A stretch of 25,887 nt of DNA, from positions 1 to 25,887 of the IMG/VR virus record IMGVR_UViG_3300020045_001767, one strand, 5' to 3'. Under the pieces are notes generated by a model. That model ran no database searches and had not been told where the DNA came from. It was given only the letters and a program-made list of their open reading frames with translations. The translations under genes and the position numbers were made by a program. Numbering within the stretch: position 1 is the stretch's first letter; every line of letters begins with the position of its first letter. The stretch comes from a virus (Duplodnaviria; Caudoviricetes). Positions 1-23,997 of this stretch are shown here, one piece after another.

Positions 1-244
1 TGTATGAAGTATCAGTAACTTTCTTTAAAGTTTTTCGATTTGTAGCGTTTAAAATAATTGGCTTACATTCTAAAAAGAATACGGTTAAAACAGGCTCTTC
101 CATTTGTGCCTTTTGATTAAAAACAAACTCAGATTTAACTTCTTTTATTGTCACAATAATATCATTTGTTTTACCGTTTTCATCCTGTAAGTCCCAACCT
201 CCTAAATAGTTTGGATTTCTTAATTTGTCAATGTGTGTTTTCAT
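1..244 (-). CDS. Conserved phage hypothetical protein, truncated by the window edge (possibly recombination-module associated)
   Basis: Manual translation from ATG at 244: MKTHIDKLRNPNYLGGWDL...KPIILNATNRKTLKK..., open to the edge. ATGA overlap with the stop of ORF 241..543. Function is a guess. Confidence 0.7.
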   Translation of the reverse strand, partial: MKTHIDKLRNPNYLGGWDLQDENGKTNDIIVTIKEVKSEFVFNQKAQMEEPVLTVFFLECKPIILNATNRKTLKKVTDTSY

Positions 245-543
245 AATTTATAATTTTTTATAGGTTGTTCAAAAATAGGGTCGTTCACTAATATCTCAGT
301 AACGGATTTAGCAAATGGGTATTTTTTAGATATTACACCGCATTCAACACTTGCAATAATTCTACGGTTTACCATTTCTTGTTTAAATTTCGATTCTAAG
401 GCTTCAAATATTTCTAAGCTATACTTAGTATCACTTTTTAATAAAAGATAGCGTAGGATAATCTCGGCCTCTTTATCGGCGGTTAATCTTTCGTTTGCAA
501 AGGCGTTAATGTACTTTACAATGTTTAATAGTATTTTTTTCAT
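241..543 (-). CDS. Hypothetical phage protein (100 aa)
   Basis: ORF track; co-directional, coupled to the next gene, preceded by the repeated promoter-like motif at 559-590. Confidence 0.75.
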   Translation of the reverse strand: MKKILLNIVKYINAFANERLTADKEAEIILRYLLLKSDTKYSLEIFEALESKFKQEMVNRRIIASVECGVISKKYPFAKSVTEILVNDPIFEQPIKNYKL

Positions 544-558
544 ATCGTTTTATTTTCT

Positions 559-590
559 GTAAATGTAAACATAATTACTTACATAACAAT
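559..590 (-). promoter_or_regulatory. Copy 1 of a 32-bp promoter/operator-like repeat
   Basis: gtaaatgtaaacataattacttacataacaat matches 5044-5075 at 28/32. The minus strand contains TACATTTA, a variant of the Bacteroidota -7 box TAnnTTTG. Confidence 0.6.
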
Positions 591-614
591 TAAAAAGTTG
601 GTTTATTTTTAAGA

Positions 615-1418
615 TTAAATAGGCAACATCATTTTAGATATTATATTAGCGCTTACGTGTGTGTAAATTTCAGTCGTCTTACTACTTGAATGTCCTAAAT
701 GTTTTTGTATAATTCTTAAGTCAGTTCCCGCTTCTAATAACGCAGTAGCATTTGAATGTCTAAGTAAGTGAAAATGATATTCCTTACCTAAATATTTTTT
801 AACTATTTGATTACAACTCGTATGCGAATATTGCAAATCAAACTGACCGTTAAATAAATATTCCTTTGGTTTGTATTCAGAAAAGTAAATTCTAAGTATA
901 TTTAGTATTTTTTCTGATAATCCTACAATTCTATCTTTTCTACCTTTACTCTGTCTAATAGTAATAACCATTCTTTTACTATCAATGTCGTATATTTTTA
1001 GATTACATACCTCAGAAACTCTCATTCCTGTACTATAAGCCAAAGAAATAATAGCCTTGTGTTTAGTGTTGTTAATTTTATGAATAGCATCTAATAAGAA
1101 ATCTTTGTCAATAATTTTAGGTAGTTTTTTTTCTGATCTTGGATATTCGATGTGCTTGAATTTTATAGGTTGTTTTCCGGTGAGTTTATAAAACAATTTC
1201 ACGGCAGAGATTCGATGTTTTCTACCGTTTATTGAGTTTGCCAAAAGTAGCCATTGTTTTATCTGTTTTTCTGAAATTTCAGAAGGTTTGGTTGCTATAT
1301 TATTAAAATACTCCAAAAACAACTTCACTTGACTAGAATAATTAGAAATAGTGTTTTCAGAATAGTTTTTTAGCTTTAAGTCTTCGGAATACAATTCCAC
1401 ATACTTTCCGATATTCAT
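615..1418 (-). CDS. Tyrosine recombinase (integron-integrase-like/XerD family, N-terminal SAM-like domain), without the IntI-specific insertion
   Basis: Catalytic motifs GMRVSE (R), QSKGRKDR (K), HLLRHS (HxxR), LGHSS (H), TTEIYTHV (Y). N-terminus YSENTISNY is typical of SAM-like integrase domains. Confidence 0.93.
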   Translation of the reverse strand: MNIGKYVELYSEDLKLKNYSENTISNYSSQVKLFLEYFNNIATKPSEISEKQIKQWLLLANSINGRKHRISAVKLFYKLTGKQPIKFKHIEYPRSEKKLPKIIDKDFLLDAIHKINNTKHKAIISLAYSTGMRVSEVCNLKIYDIDSKRMVITIRQSKGRKDRIVGLSEKILNILRIYFSEYKPKEYLFNGQFDLQYSHTSCNQIVKKYLGKEYHFHLLRHSNATALLEAGTDLRIIQKHLGHSSSKTTEIYTHVSANIISKMMLPI

Positions 1419-1480
1419 AGTCTTAGGTGTTAGTTTTATTAGTATTTACAGATGATGTTTACATATAGTAGTTAGTGGCA
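1419..1480 (+). other. attI-like primary recombination site, predicted crossover G1471|TT
   Basis: First GTTA core (GTTAGTGGCA, 1471-1480) lies 53 bp upstream of the integrase start. Unlike the other cores, it has no upstream TAAC box or hairpin arm. Confidence 0.6.
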
Positions 1481-1488
1481 ACCGCCTA

Positions 1489-1713
1489 TTATTGCGGGAA
1501 ATATATTTCGGCATCTTTAAACGCAACCTCGTTAATAATATTAGTTCCCCATCCATTCATTCCATTAATAGCGGTTACACTTCCGTCACTTGCGTTTAAG
1601 AATCGCACCATTATTTGTCCGTCAAAATCTACATCAAATTCGCTTTCTAATAGAATTGATGCGTCTACTTTTTTAAAAAATCCATTAAAGAATATTACAA
1701 TTTGCTTTTCCAT
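1489..1713 (-). CDS. Cassette 1 hypothetical protein (74 aa)
   Basis: ORF fills the space between GTTAGTGGCA (1471) and TGCCACTAAC (1736). Confidence 0.75.
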   Translation of the reverse strand: MEKQIVIFFNGFFKKVDASILLESEFDVDFDGQIMVRFLNASDGSVTAINGMNGWGTNIINEVAFKDAEIYFPQ

Positions 1714-1735
1714 AATCTTAAAGTTTTAAGTGGTA

Positions 1736-1877
1736 TGCCACTAACAACAGCTACATTTCAGCTTTTGTATTTGGCATAAGGTTAATATTATTTTGTATTT
1801 GTAATTATTGTTTTTTTATCCGAAGTACCTCGCTTTTTTACCTCAAGCCGAAATTGTAGCTGCGGCCGTTATAGCTT
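1736..1877 (+). repeat. attC-like site 1
   Basis: TGCCACTAAC 1736-1745; arms cagctacatttcagctt / aagccgaaattgtagctg (one bulged base, one mismatch); core GTTATAGCTT 1868-1877. Confidence 0.85.
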
Positions 1878-1903
1878 ATGGCTCGATTTCGTTTCATAAG
1901 AAA

Positions 1904-2086
1904 TTATTCAGTGCCTGTTTCGGCAATTAATTCTAAAACATTTACTTCTTTTAAACCATATTGATATTTACAACTATCACATTTTTTCATTGTGATTTCA
2001 CACCCTTTTCTAGTTTCTTTTAAAATACGAGTTGCAATTCCTTTATCACATTTGCCACATTTAAATTGTTGGGTTATTTTTTTCAT
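1904..2086 (-). CDS. Cassette 2 small zinc-ribbon-like protein (60 aa)
   Basis: CGKC...CDSC cysteine pairs; ATGA overlap with the upstream ORF. Confidence 0.7.
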   Translation of the reverse strand: MKKITQQFKCGKCDKGIATRILKETRKGCEITMKKCDSCKYQYGLKEVNVLELIAETGTE

Positions 2087-2226
2087 GATTCTGCAATTAT
2101 TAGTAAATCTTCGGCATTATAATCGGTATCTTCATTAGATACAGCGTCAATTAAAATATCTGGTCTTTCCAGCAATTCGTTTATAACATTAATCACTTCT
2201 TCTCTTGTAAAATTTTGCTTTTTCAT
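2083..2226 (-). CDS. Cassette 2 small acidic hypothetical protein (likely start MKKQNF at 2226; alternative start 2286 inside attC2)
   Basis: ORF track 2083..2286; the internal ATG at 2226 has an A-rich upstream context. Confidence 0.65.
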   Translation of the reverse strand: MKKQNFTREEVINVINELLERPDILIDAVSNEDTDYNAEDLLIIAES

Positions 2227-2252
2227 TACGTTTATTTTTAAAAACCCGCCAC

Positions 2253-2392
2253 AAGCTATAACAGCAATTTGTGGTAATTCGGGCATTAGTTATTAATTTA
2301 TTTTTGGTCTTGTATTTGTATAATCTGTCTTGAATCGCTACTTTAGGATTTACTTACCCAAAACTACCACAAGTTGCAGGACGTTAGGGATA
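2253..2392 (+). repeat. attC-like site 2
   Basis: AAGCTATAAC 2253-2262 is the reverse complement of 1868-1877; arms gcaatttgtggtaattcggg / cccaaaactaccacaagttgc; core GTTAGGGATA 2383-2392. Confidence 0.85.
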
Positions 2393-2396
2393 ACCG

Positions 2397-2822
2397 CTAG
2401 TTGCCGGTTAAACCTATTTGTTTTAATGCCGTTGGAGTTAGCTGTATATTATATTTTACCAGGTATTCTATTGTTTCATGTTTTAATCCTGAAAATTGTT
2501 TTAAATAAACACTATTTATTCCATTTGATAAATATTCATTATACCTGTTATATTCTATAATTTCAAAATTATTAAACAAGCACCTTTCTTTTGCTTTTTT
2601 ATATTGTTTATACTGCATCAATTCATGCATTGCAAGGTTATGGAATTGCGCTCTATAAAGAATGTCATCTGATGGAGTTTCTAGAACATTCCCATCTTCA
2701 TCACAAGGAACAAACATCCATTTTTCATTGGCTTGTTTTAAGAATTTTGCGTAGTTTGTAATATTTATTCCAGACATACTTTCGTCTTGTAATACGTAAT
2801 CGGTCATTGATAATAAGTTCAT
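2397..2822 (-). CDS. Cassette 3 hypothetical phage-type protein (141 aa)
   Basis: ORF fills cassette 3; contains MFVPCDEDGNVLE. Confidence 0.8.
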   Translation of the reverse strand: MNLLSMTDYVLQDESMSGINITNYAKFLKQANEKWMFVPCDEDGNVLETPSDDILYRAQFHNLAMHELMQYKQYKKAKERCLFNNFEIIEYNRYNEYLSNGINSVYLKQFSGLKHETIEYLVKYNIQLTPTALKQIGLTGN

Positions 2823-2857
2823 AGTATTATTTTTTTAAGTTAATTTTTTACGTGGTA

Positions 2858-2995
2858 TATCCCTAACACGTGATTGTATCAATGGCTACATCATTTTTTC
2901 CTTCGGAAAAAACGCTGGCGGGTTTAATCAGGATTTACTTGTTTTCTTTAGTCTTTAATTTTAGCCACCGAGACAAGCACCCAACGTTAGCGGTC
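2858..2995 (+). repeat. attC-like site 3
   Basis: TATCCCTAAC 2858-2867 is the reverse complement of 2383-2392; arms gtgattgtatcaatggcta / tagccaccgagacaagcac; core GTTAGCGGTC 2986-2995. Confidence 0.85.
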
Positions 2996-2998
2996 AGG

Positions 2999-3292
2999 CT
3001 AACAATCGACCTCCGAAAATAAAGGCTTCGAGCATTTACAACATTCTACTTCATAATCTTGAAAAGCATAATCTTGAAAATAACCGCATTCGTCGCCACC
3101 TTCATAGTTTATATATTCGCTAAATTCTTTATTGGCATTTATTTCTTCAACTCTTTTTTGGCAACAATCAGAACAATAAAAAGTATTTCCATCTTCGTAA
3201 TAAATCCAATTTGCGAGTTCTTTATCAACCTCGCCCGAACCGCTAACAACCGATTGATTTTCAGCTTTTTTATTATTTTCTTCTGTATTCAT
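2999..3292 (-). CDS. Cassette 4 acidic Cys-rich hypothetical protein (97 aa), start inside the attC4 loop
   Basis: ORF track; YCSDCC and CCKC motifs suggest metal binding. Confidence 0.75.
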   Translation of the reverse strand: MNTEENNKKAENQSVVSGSGEVDKELANWIYYEDGNTFYCSDCCQKRVEEINANKEFSEYINYEGGDECGYFQDYAFQDYEVECCKCSKPLFSEVDC

Positions 3293-3379
3293 TTTTCTGT
3301 GTTTTTTAGTATTAGTGATTAGGTAAATATGGCTTTGTGTTTTTTCAAGCCGAAAAACAAGCGGCGAACGTTATGGTTA
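3239..3379 (+). repeat. attC-like site 4
   Basis: ACCGCTAAC 3239-3247 is the reverse complement of 2986-2994; arms ccgattgattttcagctt / aagccgaaaaacaagcgg; core GTTATGGTTA 3370-3379. Confidence 0.85.
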
Positions 3380-3380
3380 A

Positions 3381-3842
3381 TCATAAAAAACGCCTACGTT
3401 GCTTAAAGTACGCATCCATAGTAGATACTTTCCCTTCATTGTCGTGATATTTTTCATTTAATCCGTGCATAACTCCTTCTGTCAAATACTCTATAAAAGA
3501 AAGAGGAAAACCTCCAACTCTTTTTTTTGTCTTTTCAAATCCGTATTCTTCTGATAAGCTAGAAATACCCATTCTTAAAGCAAAATGTATTTCATTACTT
3601 AATCCATCTTTAAAACAACCTATAAAATTAGGTTCTTGCCTGTTTTTAAAGTAATTATCAATAGTTTCCAATGCCTTTAAGTATTCGGAATGACTAACCA
3701 TAACACTCGTTTGGCAAGATTGGGTATTTGGCTTAATTTGATGATTGTTTTGTACTTGGCATATTAGTTTTAAATTTAAAGTTGGTCTTGTATTTTCGGC
3801 AACAAGACAAAGCCACGAACCGTTATTCTTCAAATGATTCAT
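3381..3842 (-). CDS. Cassette 5 hypothetical protein (start uncertain; the frame stays open through attC5)
   Basis: ORF track 153 aa. The N-terminal ~50 codons overlap attC5, so the true start may be the internal M of MVSHSEY. Confidence 0.65.
   Translation of the reverse strand: MNHLKNNGSWLCLVAENTRPTLNLKLICQVQNNHQIKPNTQSCQTSVMVSHSEYLKALETIDNYFKNRQEPNFIGCFKDGLSNEIHFALRMGISSLSEEYGFEKTKKRVGGFPLSFIEYLTEGVMHGLNEKYHDNEGKVSTMDAYFKQRRRFL
3695..3824 (+). repeat. attC-like site 5 (arms not complementary, probably chimeric)
   Basis: TAACCATAAC 3695-3704 is the reverse complement of 3370-3379. GTT at 3822 has the same spacing, but arm ctcgtttggcaagattggg does not pair with cggcaacaagacaaagccac. Confidence 0.7.
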
Positions 3843-4056
3843 AATGTTTTTTCTCTACTGCCTCAAACAGCAACTGCCTATCGATTATTTCTAATATTTT
3901 AGAAAAATGATCCTCTGGTATTGGATTATCTAATTTAGAATTAAACCATCTTTGCCTAACTTGTCCAAAACTAGTTTTAGTTTTATTTGCAATAACTTTT
4001 AATATTGCTGTCTTATGCTTCATTAAAGCATATTTTTCTGTGATTTGTTTTTTCAT
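3823..4056 (-). CDS. Small basic protein, possible helix-turn-helix DNA-binding protein (77 aa)
   Basis: IANKTKTSFGQVRQRWF resembles an HTH. Its TAA stop coincides with the TTA of the last GTTA core. Confidence 0.6.
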   Translation of the reverse strand: MKKQITEKYALMKHKTAILKVIANKTKTSFGQVRQRWFNSKLDNPIPEDHFSKILEIIDRQLLFEAVEKKHYESFEE

Positions 4057-4057
4057 G

Positions 4058-4249
4058 TTATAGTTTTATCCAGTTTAAAAGGTTTAAATGAGCGCATCCA
4101 GTATATAAACAATATAATTCATTTCCTCTATCGTCATTAATTTTAAATGACATATAGGTATTGCCTTGTGATGTTTCGTATTTTTTACCCTTAGTTAATG
4201 ATGTCTCTAAGTCATGTACATCGATAGGACTTTCTACATATTTTTTCAT
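4058..4249 (-). CDS. Hypothetical phage protein (63 aa)
   Basis: ORF track; tightly packed in the operon. Confidence 0.7.
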   Translation of the reverse strand: MKKYVESPIDVHDLETSLTKGKKYETSQGNTYMSFKINDDRGNELYCLYTGCAHLNLLNWIKL

Positions 4250-4256
4250 AATTGTA

Positions 4257-4685
4257 TTATTTTAATGAGTTTGGGTTTTCGTGAATGTTTCCGATTATTT
4301 CTAAATGATTTTCAGTGTCTTTATATGCAAAGCTTGAGTAATTAAATTCGTAATTATCCCCTTCTTTTCTTTCGGTTGTTTTAGAATCAACGTAATAAAT
4401 AACTCTAAATTTTATATCTGGGTTTATTTCGACAACTGCGTATCTGTGCCAACGTTCCTCACTATGTTTGTGCATTCCCCATTTTACAATATCACCCTCA
4501 TAAATATCAACTCCGTTTTTATCGGTTAGTCCCGTGAATTGCATTAACGGTTCAAAATCATTTACGTCTATTTTAATCACAGCTCCTGTTCCAACAGAAA
4601 CTTTTACAAAGTATGGACAAAAAGAAAATACATTATGCATCTTTTTTCCAATCATGTCCCATGCTCTAAATTTAATTTCTCTCAT
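4257..4685 (-). CDS. YopX family phage protein
   Basis: Signature motifs MREIKFRAWD, LMQFTGLTDKNGVDIYEGDIV and EIIGNIHENP. Confidence 0.93.
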   Translation of the reverse strand: MREIKFRAWDMIGKKMHNVFSFCPYFVKVSVGTGAVIKIDVNDFEPLMQFTGLTDKNGVDIYEGDIVKWGMHKHSEERWHRYAVVEINPDIKFRVIYYVDSKTTERKEGDNYEFNYSSFAYKDTENHLEIIGNIHENPNSLK

Positions 4686-4801
4686 TACAATAATCCTTTT
4701 AATTCATTTGGCATACAAGATTTACCTCCAAATAAAAAGTTACTAATTTCTTCGTGCGATGTGTAGCCCAATGTGATAATGGCTAATAATAGTTTTTTCA
4801 T
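4685..4801 (-). CDS. Small hypothetical protein (38 aa), not in the ORF track
   Basis: MKKLLLAIITLGYTSHEEISNFLFGGKSCMPNELKGLL*; TAATG coupling to the YopX start. Confidence 0.5.
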   Translation of the reverse strand: MKKLLLAIITLGYTSHEEISNFLFGGKSCMPNELKGLL

Positions 4802-4825
4802 GGTGTTAGTTTTAATTTATTTGTT

Positions 4826-5017
4826 TTATATTGTTTTTTCGTATTCTTTAATTTGCTCTAAGAAATTGCAATCTTTTGGATATTGATTTATAAAATATGA
4901 TTGTCCTATTTTTTTACAACTTGTGCAAATTCCTTCCCCACAATCCCATTCTATAAACTCAGGACATTCTTTGTTTTTGCAAAATTCATTAAAGCAAGTT
5001 TTTATATTACCTTCCAT
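4826..5017 (-). CDS. Cys-rich hypothetical protein (63 aa)
   Basis: ORF track; seven cysteines; first gene after the repeat at 5044-5075. Confidence 0.7.
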   Translation of the reverse strand: MEGNIKTCFNEFCKNKECPEFIEWDCGEGICTSCKKIGQSYFINQYPKDCNFLEQIKEYEKTI

Positions 5018-5043
5018 AATTTCTATTTGTTTTATTTATATAA

Positions 5044-5075
5044 GTAAATGTAATCATAATAATTCACATAACAAT
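5044..5075 (-). promoter_or_regulatory. Copy 2 of the 32-bp promoter/operator-like repeat
   Basis: gtaaatgtaatcataataattcacataacaat; 28/32 identical to 559-590; lies just after a terminator. Confidence 0.6.
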
Positions 5076-5113
5076 AGTTTTTATAAAAAAAGTGCAAATT
5101 ATTTTTTAGACAT

Positions 5114-5144
5114 AAAAAAACCCTTGCTTGTATCAAGGGTTTTT
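5114..5144. terminator. Intrinsic terminator, potentially bidirectional, ending the late/lysis transcript
   Basis: A7-cccttg-cttgtat-caaggg-T5. Confidence 0.85.
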
Positions 5145-5316
5145 AACGATAACTAAAGATGACTAATCTTTTTTTAACCTGTGAAGAAATGGTGTGAAAT
5201 TTTTTTATTTATCTTAAATTGCGTACTAGCATTCATCCAGATAATTAAAGAAATAACCACATTGTTTTAGTAACTAAGAGAAAGTCATTGTACTTCAAAT
5301 ACTCTTTTCTATAATT

Positions 5317-5324
5317 CAAATATA
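5317..5324 (-). promoter_or_regulatory. Bacteroidota -7 promoter box TATATTTG
   Basis: Exact TAnnTTTG match in intergenic DNA. Confidence 0.5.
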
Positions 5325-5425
5325 CAACTATATTTTTAATTTAAACCATAATAATACGAATAAACACAATATAAAAAACAGCAATGCAAATAATATTGTG
5401 TACTCTGTTTTCTCTGATTCTTTGT

Positions 5426-5995
5426 TTACTTAATTATAGCAACGCCTAAAATAAATCCTAATCCAAATTTAAACAGCGTAGTATCGTAAAATTCTTTTTT
5501 AGGCGCAACTTCTATGTGTTGAATTTCTTTAGAATTAACGTATTTATTTGAATGTGAAATATCAATAGTATTTATTTTTTCACCTAATAACCATTTTCTT
5601 TTATTGCCTGTAACAATTATCAAAGAATCATTAATAGTTAAATCAGATACTTTTAAGCCTTTATTGTTAGATTTATAGGTAAACTCATATTCGTCTGTTT
5701 TTATTTCGCCTATACGCTCAAAAACATAAGGTACTGAATCTTTATAACGTACTGCAATAGTGTCAATCTTAATCCTATCTACATATTTTGTAATAGTTTT
5801 TATTTCGGTAAACTTTTTTACTATTGTTTCTGGCAATTTAACGGCTTCAATAGCTTCTTTTTTAGTCGTTACTGTTTTATATTCTACTGTATCGTGCTTA
5901 GTAATTTTGTCATTATTGCATCTTGAAACTAATGCGCAAATAAGAACTATAATAATTCCTATCCACGCCCAATTTGATTTTATAAATTCTTTCAT
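5426..5995 (-). CDS. Spanin-like lysis accessory protein (N-terminal hydrophobic/lipoprotein signal, C-terminal TM)
   Basis: WAWIGIIIVLICALVSRC N-terminus, FKFGLGFILGVAIIK C-terminus, downstream of the endolysin. Confidence 0.55.
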   Translation of the reverse strand: MKEFIKSNWAWIGIIIVLICALVSRCNNDKITKHDTVEYKTVTTKKEAIEAVKLPETIVKKFTEIKTITKYVDRIKIDTIAVRYKDSVPYVFERIGEIKTDEYEFTYKSNNKGLKVSDLTINDSLIIVTGNKRKWLLGEKINTIDISHSNKYVNSKEIQHIEVAPKKEFYDTTLFKFGLGFILGVAIIK

Positions 5996-6007
5996 AAGTA
6001 TTTAGTA

Positions 6008-7843: not shown

Positions 7844-8069
7844 CTATTAACGCATCTACTTTATCTTGTAGCTTATCAGGATTTTGAGTAGGAAGTTGAA
7901 CTTTTAATTTGTAGACCCCGTAAAGTCCAAACAAAACTTTTAAAATACCTATCCATTTTTCAGAAATCCCGATTTCTAACAAGAAAGGATTTAAAACCTC
8001 GAACCCTTGATCTAAAATAATTAATGCAAATCCCACGATTGCAAACCACCAATTTTTTAAAGTATTCAT
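7806..8069 (-). CDS. Holin candidate (87 aa)
   Basis: Two TM segments and a charged C-terminal tail; first gene of the lysis module. Confidence 0.6.
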   Translation of the reverse strand: MNTLKNWWFAIVGFALIILDQGFEVLNPFLLEIGISEKWIGILKVLFGLYGVYKLKVQLPTQNPDKLQDKVDALIGGSKPPVDKDEK

Positions 8070-8092
8070 ATTTATTTATTTAAAGTTAATTA

Positions 8093-10972
8093 TTAATGTG
8101 CTACCCAGTTTGTACCGTTGTAAAAAACTGGCGTTACTACAGCCCCACCGCCTACAACCGTAGCCATGTATGTAGGTGCTAAAGCGTCTGTAACATAAGC
8201 CATTGCTCCTATAACGCCTGTTGGTAAAGTTGAAACTGTATATGCTTTTAATTCTATAGTTCCTGTCATCGTTAATTTAGGCATAGTAAACTCGCCTAGT
8301 TGATTAACTTTAGCAGTTAAAACACCATTTTTTGTATATTGGAATAAATCTCCCGTAGCTGTAGTGGCTGAGTTAGCTTTATAAGCCACACCAGACGAGC
8401 CTGTTGTTGCATCCATATATATCCCTGTTCCATTATTTGGCATAGCGCTAATAAATGTTCCTGCTCCAGAAAAATTCCTTCCTTCAATCCCATTTCCAGT
8501 AGAAGTGTTGTCTATATACAAAGTATAAGATGTGTCCCCAGAGGAAGCAAATATCCTTTTAAACGATGTATTAGCTGAAAAATCTTTAGCTCCTGTTATT
8601 GTTTGGCTTCCTGCTAATTTTACATTTCCCGCATCTGTTGCAGTCACAAAAGCAGTAGTTGCAACGCTTGTGTCATTATCACCTAAAGTTGGAGTTGGTG
8701 CTGTTGGATTTCCTGTTAAAGTAGGAGAAACCAAAGGCGCAAAATTAGTTGTTATATAATCTCTTCTAGTTAATTGATTGTTAGATGTTGGCTGAGAGTT
8801 TCCTAATGTAGTCGTTCCGCTTGAAACTGTTCCTGTTGCTTGAATATCATTTATCCCATCATTAACAGACCCGCCAACTAATAGTCTGCCCCACCATCTA
8901 CCAAAAGTAGTTGTTGAATTTCCAAAAACACTTGTATTTGACCCTAAACCTATCCCACTATAAGCTACAACCAATTGATTTGTTTGATTATCTCCTAACG
9001 GTCTTGCATCATAACCTACAAACGTTGAATTGTTTGTTATCGTTACGTTTCCACCGCTTGAAATTGTTTTCCCAGCGTCTTTTCCTATAGATGTATTTCT
9101 TGATCCAGTAGTGTTTCCAAACAAAGCTCCAAAACCAAAACCAGCATTATCAGACCCAGTATTCGCAAACATAGATTGTGCTCCTACGCTTGAATTATTG
9201 TTCCCTGATACATTAGCAAGTAATGAAGCCCCCCCTAATGCCGTATTACTACTTCCTCCTAAGTTACTACGTAAAGCATCTGTTCCTACTGCTAAATTAC
9301 TACTTCCAGTAGTGTTGTCTCTCAAAGACCCCGCACCAATAGCTAGTAAGCCCGTCCCTGTAGTATTTGACATAATTGCATTAACACCCATTTTTTGATT
9401 CGAACCTATATTTCCGCTCCCTTTACCGATAGCCACACCGTTAAAGCTACTGTCTGATCCTGTAGATATAGACCCGCTTCTTGATATTGGGGCACTTTTA
9501 TTATTACCCGAGTCTCTATTTGGGTCTGATACTAAGTTAAAATTTGATGTTGCGAGAACTACTTTAGTTACATAACCAGCTGGACTCGTGATGTAGACCC
9601 ATGTACTAGCATCTGTCCCAATATAAAGATTATTTACATTTAATTTTAAAGCATTGTCATTTGTTATAGGTGGATTATTTAAATCAAAAATAGTAGCTGC
9701 CGTAGGGCTTGTGGCATTTACATAAACGATATTAGAGTACGTAGTAGGCAGTACCGAATTTATTGCATCAACTGTAGGATATTTTGTTCCTGTTCCGTCT
9801 ACTACCAAAGAGTTTTGTTTATTAGCAACGTTTTCTGGAGTATAGCCTAAAGCACTAACAATATTAGCGAAATTCAAAGTAACACCGCCAGAAGCAACAC
9901 CTCCAAATTTCTGAGCTTCTAATATATCTGCATCCGCAACCGTCTGTAAAGAGGTTGTTGTATTTCGCATTATAATATAAGCTCTTATAATTCCGTTCTC
10001 TTTTGAGTTTGGTTCTAAGACAAAGTTTCTGAGAAATATTGCATTTTTAGCACTCGATAAATCATCATAATAATTTTGACCGTATTGAATCCTTGTAACT
10101 CCACTTTGAAACATCGTTACTGTTTGAATAGTAAATTTATTATTTGGTACAGATGTTAAAACATTATTTAAATCATACAAAGCAGGATCTAAATTTATCC
10201 TGTCACTTCCCTCTGTACCGTTTTGTGTTCTATATCTAAACGTTAAAGATGTTCCTGATGTTTGTGCTAATTCATGAGGGTTTTTCCAATCATTTACAAA
10301 GTTTGAACCTAATTTAAATATTAATCCTGCACTTTTATTTAACTGTAAATTAGCTCCATTAGCCGTATATTTATTGCCAGTTAAGTTCAACGCTCCAACC
10401 GCCTCAATAAAGTCGTGTAATTGGTTTGTACTTGCGTTTGTAGGTGCTGAAATATTGTTAATTACATTTATTGTAGTTAAGTTACTATGTATAACTGCGC
10501 CTAATACAATTAAAGAGCGTCTTTGCTCTGGCGTAAATGGTGTAGCTTGCATTACTACTGAGGCTGTATTATTTATAGCTACATAGGTAATTGTACCTGT
10601 AAGTAGGTAAGTTGGCGTAATTCCTGTAAAGGCAGGAAAATTAATTATCGTGCTTGTAGGATTTTCTGGGTCATCAAAGTTTGAAATTATCCCTATTCCT
10701 GCTGTGATATTAAATTTTGTAGGATCTCCGTTAGCTGAGATTAAACCGTTTTTAATTAATCCTGTAGAAAGGAATGCTTTTTTACCTTGAAGGTCTTCAA
10801 GTAATATTTTTCCATAAGTTCCATCTGCTCCAACTGTACCTAAATAAGTTGGTGTAGTTACCGTCTGAGTAGAATTGTTTTTAATCCCATAGTCAAATTC
10901 TTGTTCCATTCCACTAGAAACTTGACCGTACATTGAAACGGTGCATAATAAAAGAAATAGTATTTTTTTCAT
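8093..10972 (-). CDS. Tail fibre/adhesin-like protein (959 aa) with N-terminal signal peptide
   Basis: Tail-fibre motif SPTLTGNPTAPTP..DNDTSVATTAFV; ~14-aa NTTG..N.A.G..AL repeats; last gene of the tail cluster. Confidence 0.75.
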   Translation of the reverse strand: MKKILFLLLCTVSMYGQVSSGMEQEFDYGIKNNSTQTVTTPTYLGTVGADGTYGKILLEDLQGKKAFLSTGLIKNGLISANGDPTKFNITAGIGIISNFDDPENPTSTIINFPAFTGITPTYLLTGTITYVAINNTASVVMQATPFTPEQRRSLIVLGAVIHSNLTTINVINNISAPTNASTNQLHDFIEAVGALNLTGNKYTANGANLQLNKSAGLIFKLGSNFVNDWKNPHELAQTSGTSLTFRYRTQNGTEGSDRINLDPALYDLNNVLTSVPNNKFTIQTVTMFQSGVTRIQYGQNYYDDLSSAKNAIFLRNFVLEPNSKENGIIRAYIIMRNTTTSLQTVADADILEAQKFGGVASGGVTLNFANIVSALGYTPENVANKQNSLVVDGTGTKYPTVDAINSVLPTTYSNIVYVNATSPTAATIFDLNNPPITNDNALKLNVNNLYIGTDASTWVYITSPAGYVTKVVLATSNFNLVSDPNRDSGNNKSAPISRSGSISTGSDSSFNGVAIGKGSGNIGSNQKMGVNAIMSNTTGTGLLAIGAGSLRDNTTGSSNLAVGTDALRSNLGGSSNTALGGASLLANVSGNNNSSVGAQSMFANTGSDNAGFGFGALFGNTTGSRNTSIGKDAGKTISSGGNVTITNNSTFVGYDARPLGDNQTNQLVVAYSGIGLGSNTSVFGNSTTTFGRWWGRLLVGGSVNDGINDIQATGTVSSGTTTLGNSQPTSNNQLTRRDYITTNFAPLVSPTLTGNPTAPTPTLGDNDTSVATTAFVTATDAGNVKLAGSQTITGAKDFSANTSFKRIFASSGDTSYTLYIDNTSTGNGIEGRNFSGAGTFISAMPNNGTGIYMDATTGSSGVAYKANSATTATGDLFQYTKNGVLTAKVNQLGEFTMPKLTMTGTIELKAYTVSTLPTGVIGAMAYVTDALAPTYMATVVGGGAVVTPVFYNGTNWVAH

Positions 10973-20704: not shown

Positions 20705-20968
20705 ATGAGCGCATCTGAAAAAAGATTGTTTAGAGGACAACAAAAATTAACTCCTGAAATATACAAACTGTATAAAGATAGGGTTGAATTAGATTTCATT
20801 ATAAAATCTTTACGTGAGATTCCTATCGACAAACTTAAAAAACTAACAGGCTTTGAAGCAACAGACCCTTATGACGGAAAAGTACCTGATAGCATGGCGG
20901 ATTCACAATATAGGGATTCATTGATGAGACTAGGAGTAATTGAATTTAGAATGGAGATATTAATTTAA
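20705..20968 (+). CDS. Moron hypothetical protein (87 aa)
   Basis: Plus-strand ORF after its own promoter and leader. Confidence 0.75.
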   Translation: MSASEKRLFRGQQKLTPEIYKLYKDRVELDFIIKSLREIPIDKLKKLTGFEATDPYDGKVPDSMADSQYRDSLMRLGVIEFRMEILI

Positions 20969-20980
20969 TAAAAAATAATT

Positions 20981-21139
20981 ATGAAAAAAATAAAATCATT
21001 TATACAAAGAGAATTATTCATTTTAAAGCTAAATAAAGCTACTAAAAACAAAGTTTTATTTCAGTTTTTAGAAGATAACGGACACTACATTGTTAAAGAA
21101 GACGGTGGTATAATATATAAAATGCCAGAATTTAAATAA
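20981..21139 (+). CDS. Moron hypothetical protein (52 aa), not in the ORF track
   Basis: MKKIKSFIQRELFILKLNK...YKMPEFK*; A-rich start context, fills the gap. Confidence 0.65.
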   Translation: MKKIKSFIQRELFILKLNKATKNKVLFQFLEDNGHYIVKEDGGIIYKMPEFK

Positions 21140-21147
21140 CAATAACT

Positions 21148-21372
21148 ATGAAAAATTTAAGACTAAATATGATTCAGTATTCATTTGTAGATAAAATAAA
21201 AAAGCATCCGCAAGAATTTATAAATGATTTAGGTATAACTTATAAAAAATGTGAACCAATGCCTATTGGTGATTGTTGGTTGTTTTTTGATTGCAAAAAC
21301 ATACCTAATGAATTACCTAGTTTTATAGAAATTATAGAAAATAAAAAACCCTTGCATTACTACAAGGGTTAA
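21148..21372 (+). CDS. Moron hypothetical protein (74 aa)
   Basis: ORF track; its 3' end runs through the capsid terminator. Confidence 0.7.
   Translation: MKNLRLNMIQYSFVDKIKKHPQEFINDLGITYKKCEPMPIGDCWLFFDCKNIPNELPSFIEIIENKKPLHYYKG
21343..21370 (-). terminator. Intrinsic terminator after the major capsid gene
   Basis: A6-cccttg..caagggtt; same stem sequence as 5114-5144. Confidence 0.8.
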
Positions 21373-23400: not shown

Positions 23401-23997
23401 TTATTTATTTAATTTATTAGCTAATGCAATTGCTTTTCTAGTTATAGACATTTTTAATTTAGTTTCTTCGCTTGCTTTTCTACCTATTGCTTTTAAAGCT
23501 ATTTTATCTTTAGTTTCTTGAGATAAAGTACATCCTAATCTAGAAGCCGTACCTTTTCTATTTCTGCTCATTAATTCAATACTTTCTTTAGTATGCTTTC
23601 TACCTAACATTGATCTTGAATTTGAGTCTGTTAATTTTTGTCTGTGTTCTTTTGTAATTATTTTCTTTTTAGCAGATTCCGACATCTTAAATTTTGATTC
23701 CTCTGAAAAATAACCTGACTTATCTTTTGTCGTAGTTAGTCTGCAATTCAAACCACCATTAGTAACGTTATATTTATCTTGCCAAAATCTTTCTCTATCA
23801 CTAAGTAATTCAACTAAACATTCTTCAACTACTTCAAACGAATGATTTTCTACACCGTATTTTTTAAATGACCTATTTAATCTAACTTGACTTTTAGAAT
23901 CTTTATTTTTATAGTCATTCCATCTATAATTAATGTCAACAGATTGACCGATATAAACTCTATTTGTTGGACTCGTTATCTTATAAATACCTATCAT
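23401..23997 (-). CDS. GIY-YIG homing endonuclease with NUMOD3-like repeats
   Basis: GIYKIT...VYIGQS...R N-terminus; SEESKFKMS, HTKESIELMS and SEETKLKMS repeats. Confidence 0.92.
   Translation of the reverse strand: MIGIYKITSPTNRVYIGQSVDINYRWNDYKNKDSKSQVRLNRSFKKYGVENHSFEVVEECLVELLSDRERFWQDKYNVTNGGLNCRLTTTKDKSGYFSEESKFKMSESAKKKIITKEHRQKLTDSNSRSMLGRKHTKESIELMSRNRKGTASRLGCTLSQETKDKIALKAIGRKASEETKLKMSITRKAIALANKLNK

Follow-up and report, generated by a model that had tools for sequence, protein, structure and literature searches.

The 25,887-nt window analysed here is an entire linear virus record, 67% complete (IMGVR_UViG_3300020045_001767; Duplodnaviria, Caudoviricetes). Near its left end, a gene for a small tyrosine recombinase adjoins a row of short gene-bearing units resembling integron cassettes, and the locus raises the question of whether these units are mobile and what might move them. 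Portal, capsid, head-tail, tail and endolysin genes mark the window as that of a siphovirus; nearly all of its genes, including the recombinase and cassette open reading frames (ORFs), are on the − strand. It is a Flavobacterium-type phage, and among genomes the closest recombinase homologues (90–91% identity) are from Flavobacterium. The interpretation favoured here, with a probability of roughly three in four, is that of a five-unit integron-like platform with G|TT junctions and hairpin unit ends, where the adjacent 267-amino acid (aa) recombinase likely excises cassettes and inserts them at a docking site by its own start codon.

Six GTTA cores start at positions 1471, 1868, 2383, 2986, 3370 and 3822. 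The reverse complements of the first five (AAC boxes) end at 1745, 2262, 2867, 3247 and 3704, matching their own cores over 10, 10, 10, 9 and 10 nt in units 1–5, with 123, 121, 119, 123 and 118 nt from the last base of the box to the next G. The unit layout is TT-gene-AAC-hairpin-G, and every cassette ORF in the window lies on the − strand and runs opposite to the genes of a classical cassette; unit 2 holds two. The features are as follows.

615–1418, − strand: tyrosine recombinase, 267 aa, core-binding and catalytic domains (Pfam PF00589); likely cassette integrase
1419–1471, + strand: attI-like docking site, left half, assigned by first-core distance and conservation; doubles as recombinase 5′ leader; predicted crossover after G1471
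1472–1868, + strand: cassette 1, 397 bp; ORF 1489–1713 (−), 74 aa; AAC box 1736–1745; hairpin 1746–1867
1869–2383, + strand: cassette 2, 515 bp; AAC box 2253–2262; hairpin 2263–2382
1904–2086, − strand: cassette 2 ORF a, 60 aa, Cys-rich
2083–2226 or 2083–2286, − strand: cassette 2 ORF b, 47 or 67 aa, the longer form starting within the hairpin
2384–2986, + strand: cassette 3, 603 bp; ORF 2397–2822 (−), 141 aa, PHROG 12560; AAC box 2858–2867; hairpin 2868–2985
2987–3370, + strand: cassette 4, 384 bp; AAC box 3239–3247; hairpin 3248–3369
2999–3292, − strand: cassette 4 ORF, 97 aa, Cys-rich, first ATG within the hairpin
3371–3822, + strand: cassette 5, 452 bp; AAC box 3695–3704; hairpin 3705–3821, pairing poorly, probably chimeric
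3381–3701, − strand: cassette 5 ORF, 106 aa; frame open to 3842
3823–4056, − strand: fixed flanking gene, 77 aa, the right boundary of the array; the TTA of the terminal core serves as its stop codon

When all six cores were tabulated against all five AAC boxes, each of the first five matched its own box over 9–10 nt and any other over just 4–5 nt. A search for chained units in 200 triplet-block shuffles of positions 1400–3900 found none in 128, one in 70 and two, the maximum, in 2; no more than one turned up on either strand of nine further 2.5-kb stretches of the window. At each of the five sites, the DNA folding energy fell when the hairpin was joined to its own core, as in a circle. The arms pair over 18 columns at sites 1 and 4 and over about 26–28, with mismatches and gaps, at sites 2 and 3, and at these four sites the − strand folds better. 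This is not so at site 5, whose arms pair over 6 nt only. Its left arm resembles those of site 5 in locus L018 and site 3 in L021 and its right arm matches site 2 of L001, so the site is probably chimeric or damaged; with arms from different site families that pair poorly, cassette 5 is probably stuck. A preliminary description of this DNA had listed the six cores, the complement of each of the first five at the far end of its unit, AAC boxes 118–123 bp before the next GTT, and inverted arms at sites 1–4, and the measurements above agree with it on every coordinate and distance.

Relatives of the recombinase were gathered from 63 viral and 10 genome loci. Chains of at least two units were found in 31 of the 47 loci whose upstream sequence reaches 1.5 kb or more (the window counted, a few near-duplicates among them) and single units in 12; two units were reached in 2 of 470 shuffles. 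The docking site was compared in 51 loci starting at the ATG and having at least 70 nt upstream. In 46, the core lies 53–56 nt from the recombinase ATG, with 36 different sequences following it. Leader conservation peaks immediately left of G|TT and stops after GTTA, and one relative's contig matches the recombinase and leader of the window, then departs at 1475. In L006, the first position, within the first 150 nt upstream of the recombinase, is occupied by a gene-less mini unit with 31 nt from core to AAC box and a short hairpin.

Of 142 units, 122 combined a hairpin with a core of 9 nt or more and were retained. Comparing all of these with one another yielded seven pairs. Four came from duplicate contigs and one consisted of diverged homologues; the other two were true moves (L005 unit 5 and L018 unit 1, 93% over 906 nt; L022 unit 3 and L040 unit 2, 100%). 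In both moves the neighbours differ, the borders are G|TT and the AAC-side hairpin is kept. The opposite polarity, in which each hairpin would move with the gene found on its GTT side, was ruled out, since the AAC-side hairpins match at 94–100% and the preceding 55 nt at 44–47%. All eight kin that share the fixed flanking gene depart from the window at the end of the array, six at the terminal core and two inside the terminal hairpin.

Five cultured Baltic Flavobacterium phages, reached via hairpin sequence, carry 9–14 sites each in their first 14 kb; the part of cassette 2 covering ORF and hairpin finds 69.5% matches among cultured Flavobacterium phages. Between lillamy9-7 and lillamy9-6 an identical 439-bp unit has moved from position 7 to first, beside a docking-like site, and a 476-bp terminal unit has been cleanly lost, while the 1181 bp by which hemulen6-1 and stinky9-1 differ correspond to two whole units. 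All of these borders are G|TT. In L080 (5350–5520) and L081 (748–920; both in reverse-strand coordinates) the recombinase has been deleted after its first 16 codons with leader and array kept, and in L077, L084 and the lillamy phages a small 60–65-aa gene replaces it.

By these comparisons the unit travels whole, with gain, loss and relocation all taking place at G|TT. The preliminary description had suggested looking in related phages for changes at this junction, and these were found: breaks at G|TT, relocation together with the AAC-side hairpin, and precise loss in cultured phages. Its shufflable accessory-gene array is borne out in that whole units differ and change position among related phages. 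Its attribution of the movement to the adjacent recombinase stands in part: units do come, go and move at G|TT, while catalysis by this enzyme is inferred, and kin without the gene vary too. The comparative support is strong, and the chemistry rests on analogy to integrons, from which catalysis, circles, single-strand exchange and the role of this particular enzyme would follow.

Several points weigh against the platform as described. Enzyme activity, circles and transcripts are predictions from sequence; the contigs of one DNA run of a relative contain no joint across any cassette, which says nothing about circles. The difference in order between lillamy9-6 and lillamy9-7 is one between assembled genomes only. 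Four of the 47 recombinase loci have no unit, and just two non-duplicate cassette pairs with matching cores turned up among the 122 units. The recombinase is absent from all eight close kin in the DNA examined, five of which span the entire locus without it, two of these five retaining its first 16 codons and the leader, and these kin carry variable arrays; a profile that finds matches elsewhere finds it in none of the five cultured Flavobacterium phage records. The phage gene is therefore dispensable, the lillamy relocation is not creditable to a phage enzyme and must be accounted for by one acting in trans, and a host enzyme likely also acts. The chimeric site 5, together with the breaks inside the terminal hairpin (the two kin above and one contig), indicates that loop-to-loop homologous recombination also reshapes arrays. 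Finally, the recombinase lacks the IntI insertion, which PMC8138268 presents as essential to how integrons work.

The absence of the gene from kin and cultured phages suggests an alternative, in which the cassettes are real and moved by a host chromosomal enzyme only, the phage gene being a passenger or serving lysogeny. That arrays vary and relocate without it would fit, as would the presence of just one recombinase in the 67% of the genome available and of close homologues in apparent prophages (L065, L066). This is unlikely, however, given the fixed distance from recombinase ATG to first core, and given an active site that is intact across homologues: all six catalytic residues (R-K-H-R-H-Y) are present, with R133, K158, H217, R220 and Y252 invariant and H243 at least 90% conserved among 40 homologues 47–94% identical. 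Four related loci have a separate, larger second integrase (387–403 aa), which also argues against this alternative, as does a phylogenetic tree in which the phage enzymes form one clade (support 0.986) adjoining the host array enzymes, although that join is weak (0.79), and the recombinase is apart from two ~298-aa Xer-like host proteins; there is no IntI sequence in the tree, so the clade cannot be placed relative to IntI.

The link between recombinase and site was also followed outward. Among 80 metagenomic loci, those with at least 800 nt upstream had an upstream site in 14 of 19 cases at 38% identity or more and in 1 of 23 below; the coupling of enzyme and site fades with enzyme divergence. 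No close cultured carrier was found among 50,697 phage records, the best match being 38.6% identical. The integrase of Cellulophaga phage Ingeline_1 (39% identical) has no site of this type within 5 kb. That of the cultured Polaribacter phage Leef_1 (L076, 3457–4594; 34% identical) has two upstream sites in the phage-type orientation, not directly adjoining the gene. L066 is a cultured strain, Flavobacterium urumqiense, with a recombinase (8001–8801) 90% identical to that of the window and one upstream site; its genome also has other hairpin arrays and broken copies of host-type recombinases.

The recombinase had been described as non-IntI, and its profile matches agree. Against the IntI model TIGR02249 it scores 140 bits (cut-off 265), in two pieces; residues 176–212 align across IntI4 178–262, 35 residues against 83. 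The alignment with IntI4 is in two pieces and that with XerA in one. A structure model built from an alignment (predicted local distance difference test, pLDDT, 91) matches XerA first and IntI4 next. XerA, XerC and XerD (PDB 4a8e, 5hxy) have the same two-domain size and no insertion, and are the best sequence and fold matches. Unlike them, the window enzyme is tied to cassette arrays, not chromosome dimer resolution, is separated from Xer-like proteins in the tree, and falls below all three NCBIfam cut-offs (186, 156 and 156 bits against 220, 330 and 335). Its SAM-like domain starts at residue 8–11, and at 267 aa it differs from phage lysogeny integrases (~400 aa, with an N-terminal arm-binding domain).

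This resemblance would fit a second alternative, in which the phage enzyme does move the cassettes, as an Xer-like double-strand recombinase that exchanges strands twice at duplex or cruciform sites; the insertion it lacks is the segment tied to single-strand recognition in IntI. The sites make this improbable. In 112 unique phage sites, chosen by own-core match and arm pairing, partner sites have only a 4–5-nt core in common in 90 cases, and the arms vary in sequence with pairing kept. G·T pairs are distributed 168 to 55 between bottom and top strands, and the bottom strand is more stable in 104 sites; passages in PMC5027507 describe a comparable strand bias for attC, with a geometry different from that seen here. 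Conserved positions are A at +1 (99%), G at +5 (70%), T at +7 (98%), C before GTT (96%), and A at +15 (96%), which is paired in only 12–20% of sites. The right spacer is 3–4 nt longer than the left in 94 sites. Alignment gaps number 49 against 14, with more on the arm opposite R″-L″; relative to the site positions given in passages of PMC5027507, there is no conserved equivalent of G16, and the A at +15 is near T23/T24. This description of the hairpins is from sequence and claims no covariation, the quality of their MAFFT alignment being insufficient for structural modelling.

Gene orientation was scored in 117 unique phage units. The longest ORF is antisense in 105 and sense in three, with none in nine. 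Host chromosomes have the other arrangement. A recombinase homologue (E ≤ 1e-55), typically ~376 aa, is present in 105 of 151 Flavobacteriaceae genomes; such homologues match the IntI profile in two pieces, with none of three genomes above the cut-off. Of 18 host loci inspected, picked by score and contig span, 16 have sites of the same type 3′ of the gene and co-oriented with it, and in 20 host array regions 46 of 49 scored units have sense ORFs. The phage layout thus flips enzyme and cargo relative to the sites. Host docking sites (L141–L156, from recombinase stop to first core) have, by eye, a 20–28-nt palindrome of varying sequence just left of GTT; the phage docking site is without it. 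The host arrays of L142 and L150 contain repeated copies of the same cassettes.

These orientations also bear on a third alternative, that the hairpins are repeated regulatory leaders whose homology or micro-homology lets recombination exchange the genes. Each hairpin is indeed 5′ of its gene, with the first ATG inside it for 41 of 108 cassette ORFs, and the chimeric site 5 and the breaks inside the terminal hairpin are as this would predict. Host arrays with the same sites 3′ of genes are not, and own-core complementarity, the move to first position and junctions with only 4–7 nt in common would be left unexplained, making this very unlikely.

In the integron-like interpretation, the enzyme would recognise the folded − strand of the hairpin. 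Recombination between two hairpins would release a circle, and that between a hairpin and the docking site would put the cassette in first position. The recombining strand would be the coding strand, unlike in integrons, with the hairpin preceding its gene and often supplying the start codon. Transcription of the cassette genes would probably begin at a phage promoter located at the distal end of the array, so that a newly inserted cassette would be the farthest from it. The chromosomal sister enzyme of Flavobacteriaceae, with the same site type and sense genes, can probably act in trans at phage arrays, and this would account for arrays that still shuffle after loss of the phage gene.

The candidate promoter is a 32-mer present in two copies, both conserved in kin.

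5044–5075, − strand: promoter-like 32-mer, upstream copy, with four mismatches to the second copy
559–590, − strand: promoter-like 32-mer, second copy, downstream of the recombinase and common to recombinase-less kin

It fits TTG-N19-TAnnTTT(A/G), a Bacteroidota promoter pattern, with five matches in positions 1–5400; a sigma-70 promoter scan was at chance level (26 against 25.9). The copy at 5044–5075 likely drives an operon through the array into the recombinase gene. A terminator-like hairpin (5116–5144, − strand) is located between the lysis genes and the array-containing operon. A 16-nt inverted match to the 32-mer is found inside the docking site (1452–1467), and is possibly a rightward promoter or a shared protein-binding site. 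Passages in PMC5371416 imply that excision is favoured with the recombining strand on the lagging-strand template, where that of the phage would be if replication follows transcription. Cassettes swapped between host and phage would be silent.

Little can be said of the cargo in the window itself. Its six cassette ORFs have no Pfam or PADLOC family and one PHROG, of unknown function; no named family was found in the Atlas for two of them, and among viral contigs there was no relative for cassette 3 and one weak one for cassette 1. The cassette 4 ORF has 29 relatives, without annotation, and its homologues are cassettes in L161 and in L069, where it is the second. The first cassette of L069 (7004–7900), beside a phage-type recombinase, has a sense TIR-domain gene (PF10137; PADLOC PDC-S35), possibly captured from a host array. 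Among cassette ORFs of relatives, 17 of 108 match Pfam at E ≤ 0.001, including three DNA methylases, Mom, an Acb2/Tad1 hairpin and a dATP/dGTP pyrophosphohydrolase. Methyltransferase genes sit in such cassettes in the cultured Baltic phages as well. Differences in methyltransferases are tied to plating efficiency in the paper on these phages (PMC7077304), in whose main text a word search found no integron, cassette or integrase.

The system is like integrons (IntI1; Vibrio cholerae IntI4, PDB 2a3v) in having a tyrosine recombinase reading away from an adjoining docking site, G|TT crossover, AAC boxes that complement their own core, imperfect hairpins with bottom-strand bias, and cassettes of one or two genes that relocate to first position. 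It differs in its enzyme, as described above; in genes antisense to the site, those of integrons being sense with a promoter at attI; in a core of 9–10 complementary nt with no evident RRRY preference; and in hairpins mostly of 116–123 nt, often translated, with an asymmetric central spacer. It works like an integron, then, and by its enzyme and gene orientation is not a classical member.

Precedents in the literature are partial only. Clusters of attC sites lacking integron integrases (CALINs) and phage-borne IntI integrons (Qi et al., 2023; PMC9892861) are alike in having attC-like sites in phages and methyltransferase cargo. As described in passages of that paper, however, the CALINs have no integrase and are detected by classical attC tools, and those passages name no non-IntI enzyme or systematic gene inversion. 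They do report that one of two attC sites of a Bacteroidota phage, Polaribacter P12002L, recombined with IntI1; three sites of the present type occur in this phage (L169; 14505–14621, 32227–32278 and 39126–39242). In Riemerella anatipestifer, according to portions of a 2026 report (PMC13148043), transformation transferred a gene whose 3′ side bears an attC-like hairpin of 140 bp, independently of homology. As here, this is a member of the Bacteroidota, and gene, short 5′ leader and hairpin integrate as one unit; unlike here, the gene is chromosomal and sense, no recombinase is named in those portions, and the mechanism is stated there to be unresolved. By analogy, the Riemerella hairpin may be of the same site type. 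Bacteroidetes have almost no integrons according to passages on IntegronFinder 2.0, and a literature search, with thin coverage of subscription journals, found no non-IntI cassette system described for Bacteroidota or their phages.

A broader proposal, for and against which the odds seem about even, is that a second integron system operates in parallel in Bacteroidota and their phages, based on a recombinase lineage that reads folded single-strand sites although it lacks the IntI insertion. The phages would have a trimmed enzyme and mirror-image cassettes, sharing cassette currency and enzymes with their hosts; a cross-captured cassette would be antisense and silent. Genes for defence and resistance would be kept in host arrays, and those for methylases and other counter-defence functions in phage arrays. 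If true, integron-type recombination can be guided by hairpins without the segment held essential, making the origin of IntI directly testable, and a common gene-capture platform has been missed by standard tools in a phylum reported as nearly integron-free. It would also offer a candidate for the enzyme behind the gene uptake without homology reported in Riemerella, so far unexplained, and a precise mechanism behind phage accessory-gene mosaicism. Cultured phage-host pairs make the system testable now.

Elsewhere in the window, positions 1–6000 matched no Rfam family at E < 3. An AT-rich island (20705–21372) with reversed skew has three small + strand ORFs between the capsid and connector genes, two of which were scanned and gave no family match. 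A GIY-YIG/NUMOD3 homing endonuclease gene (23401–23997) is located between the head morphogenesis and protease genes.

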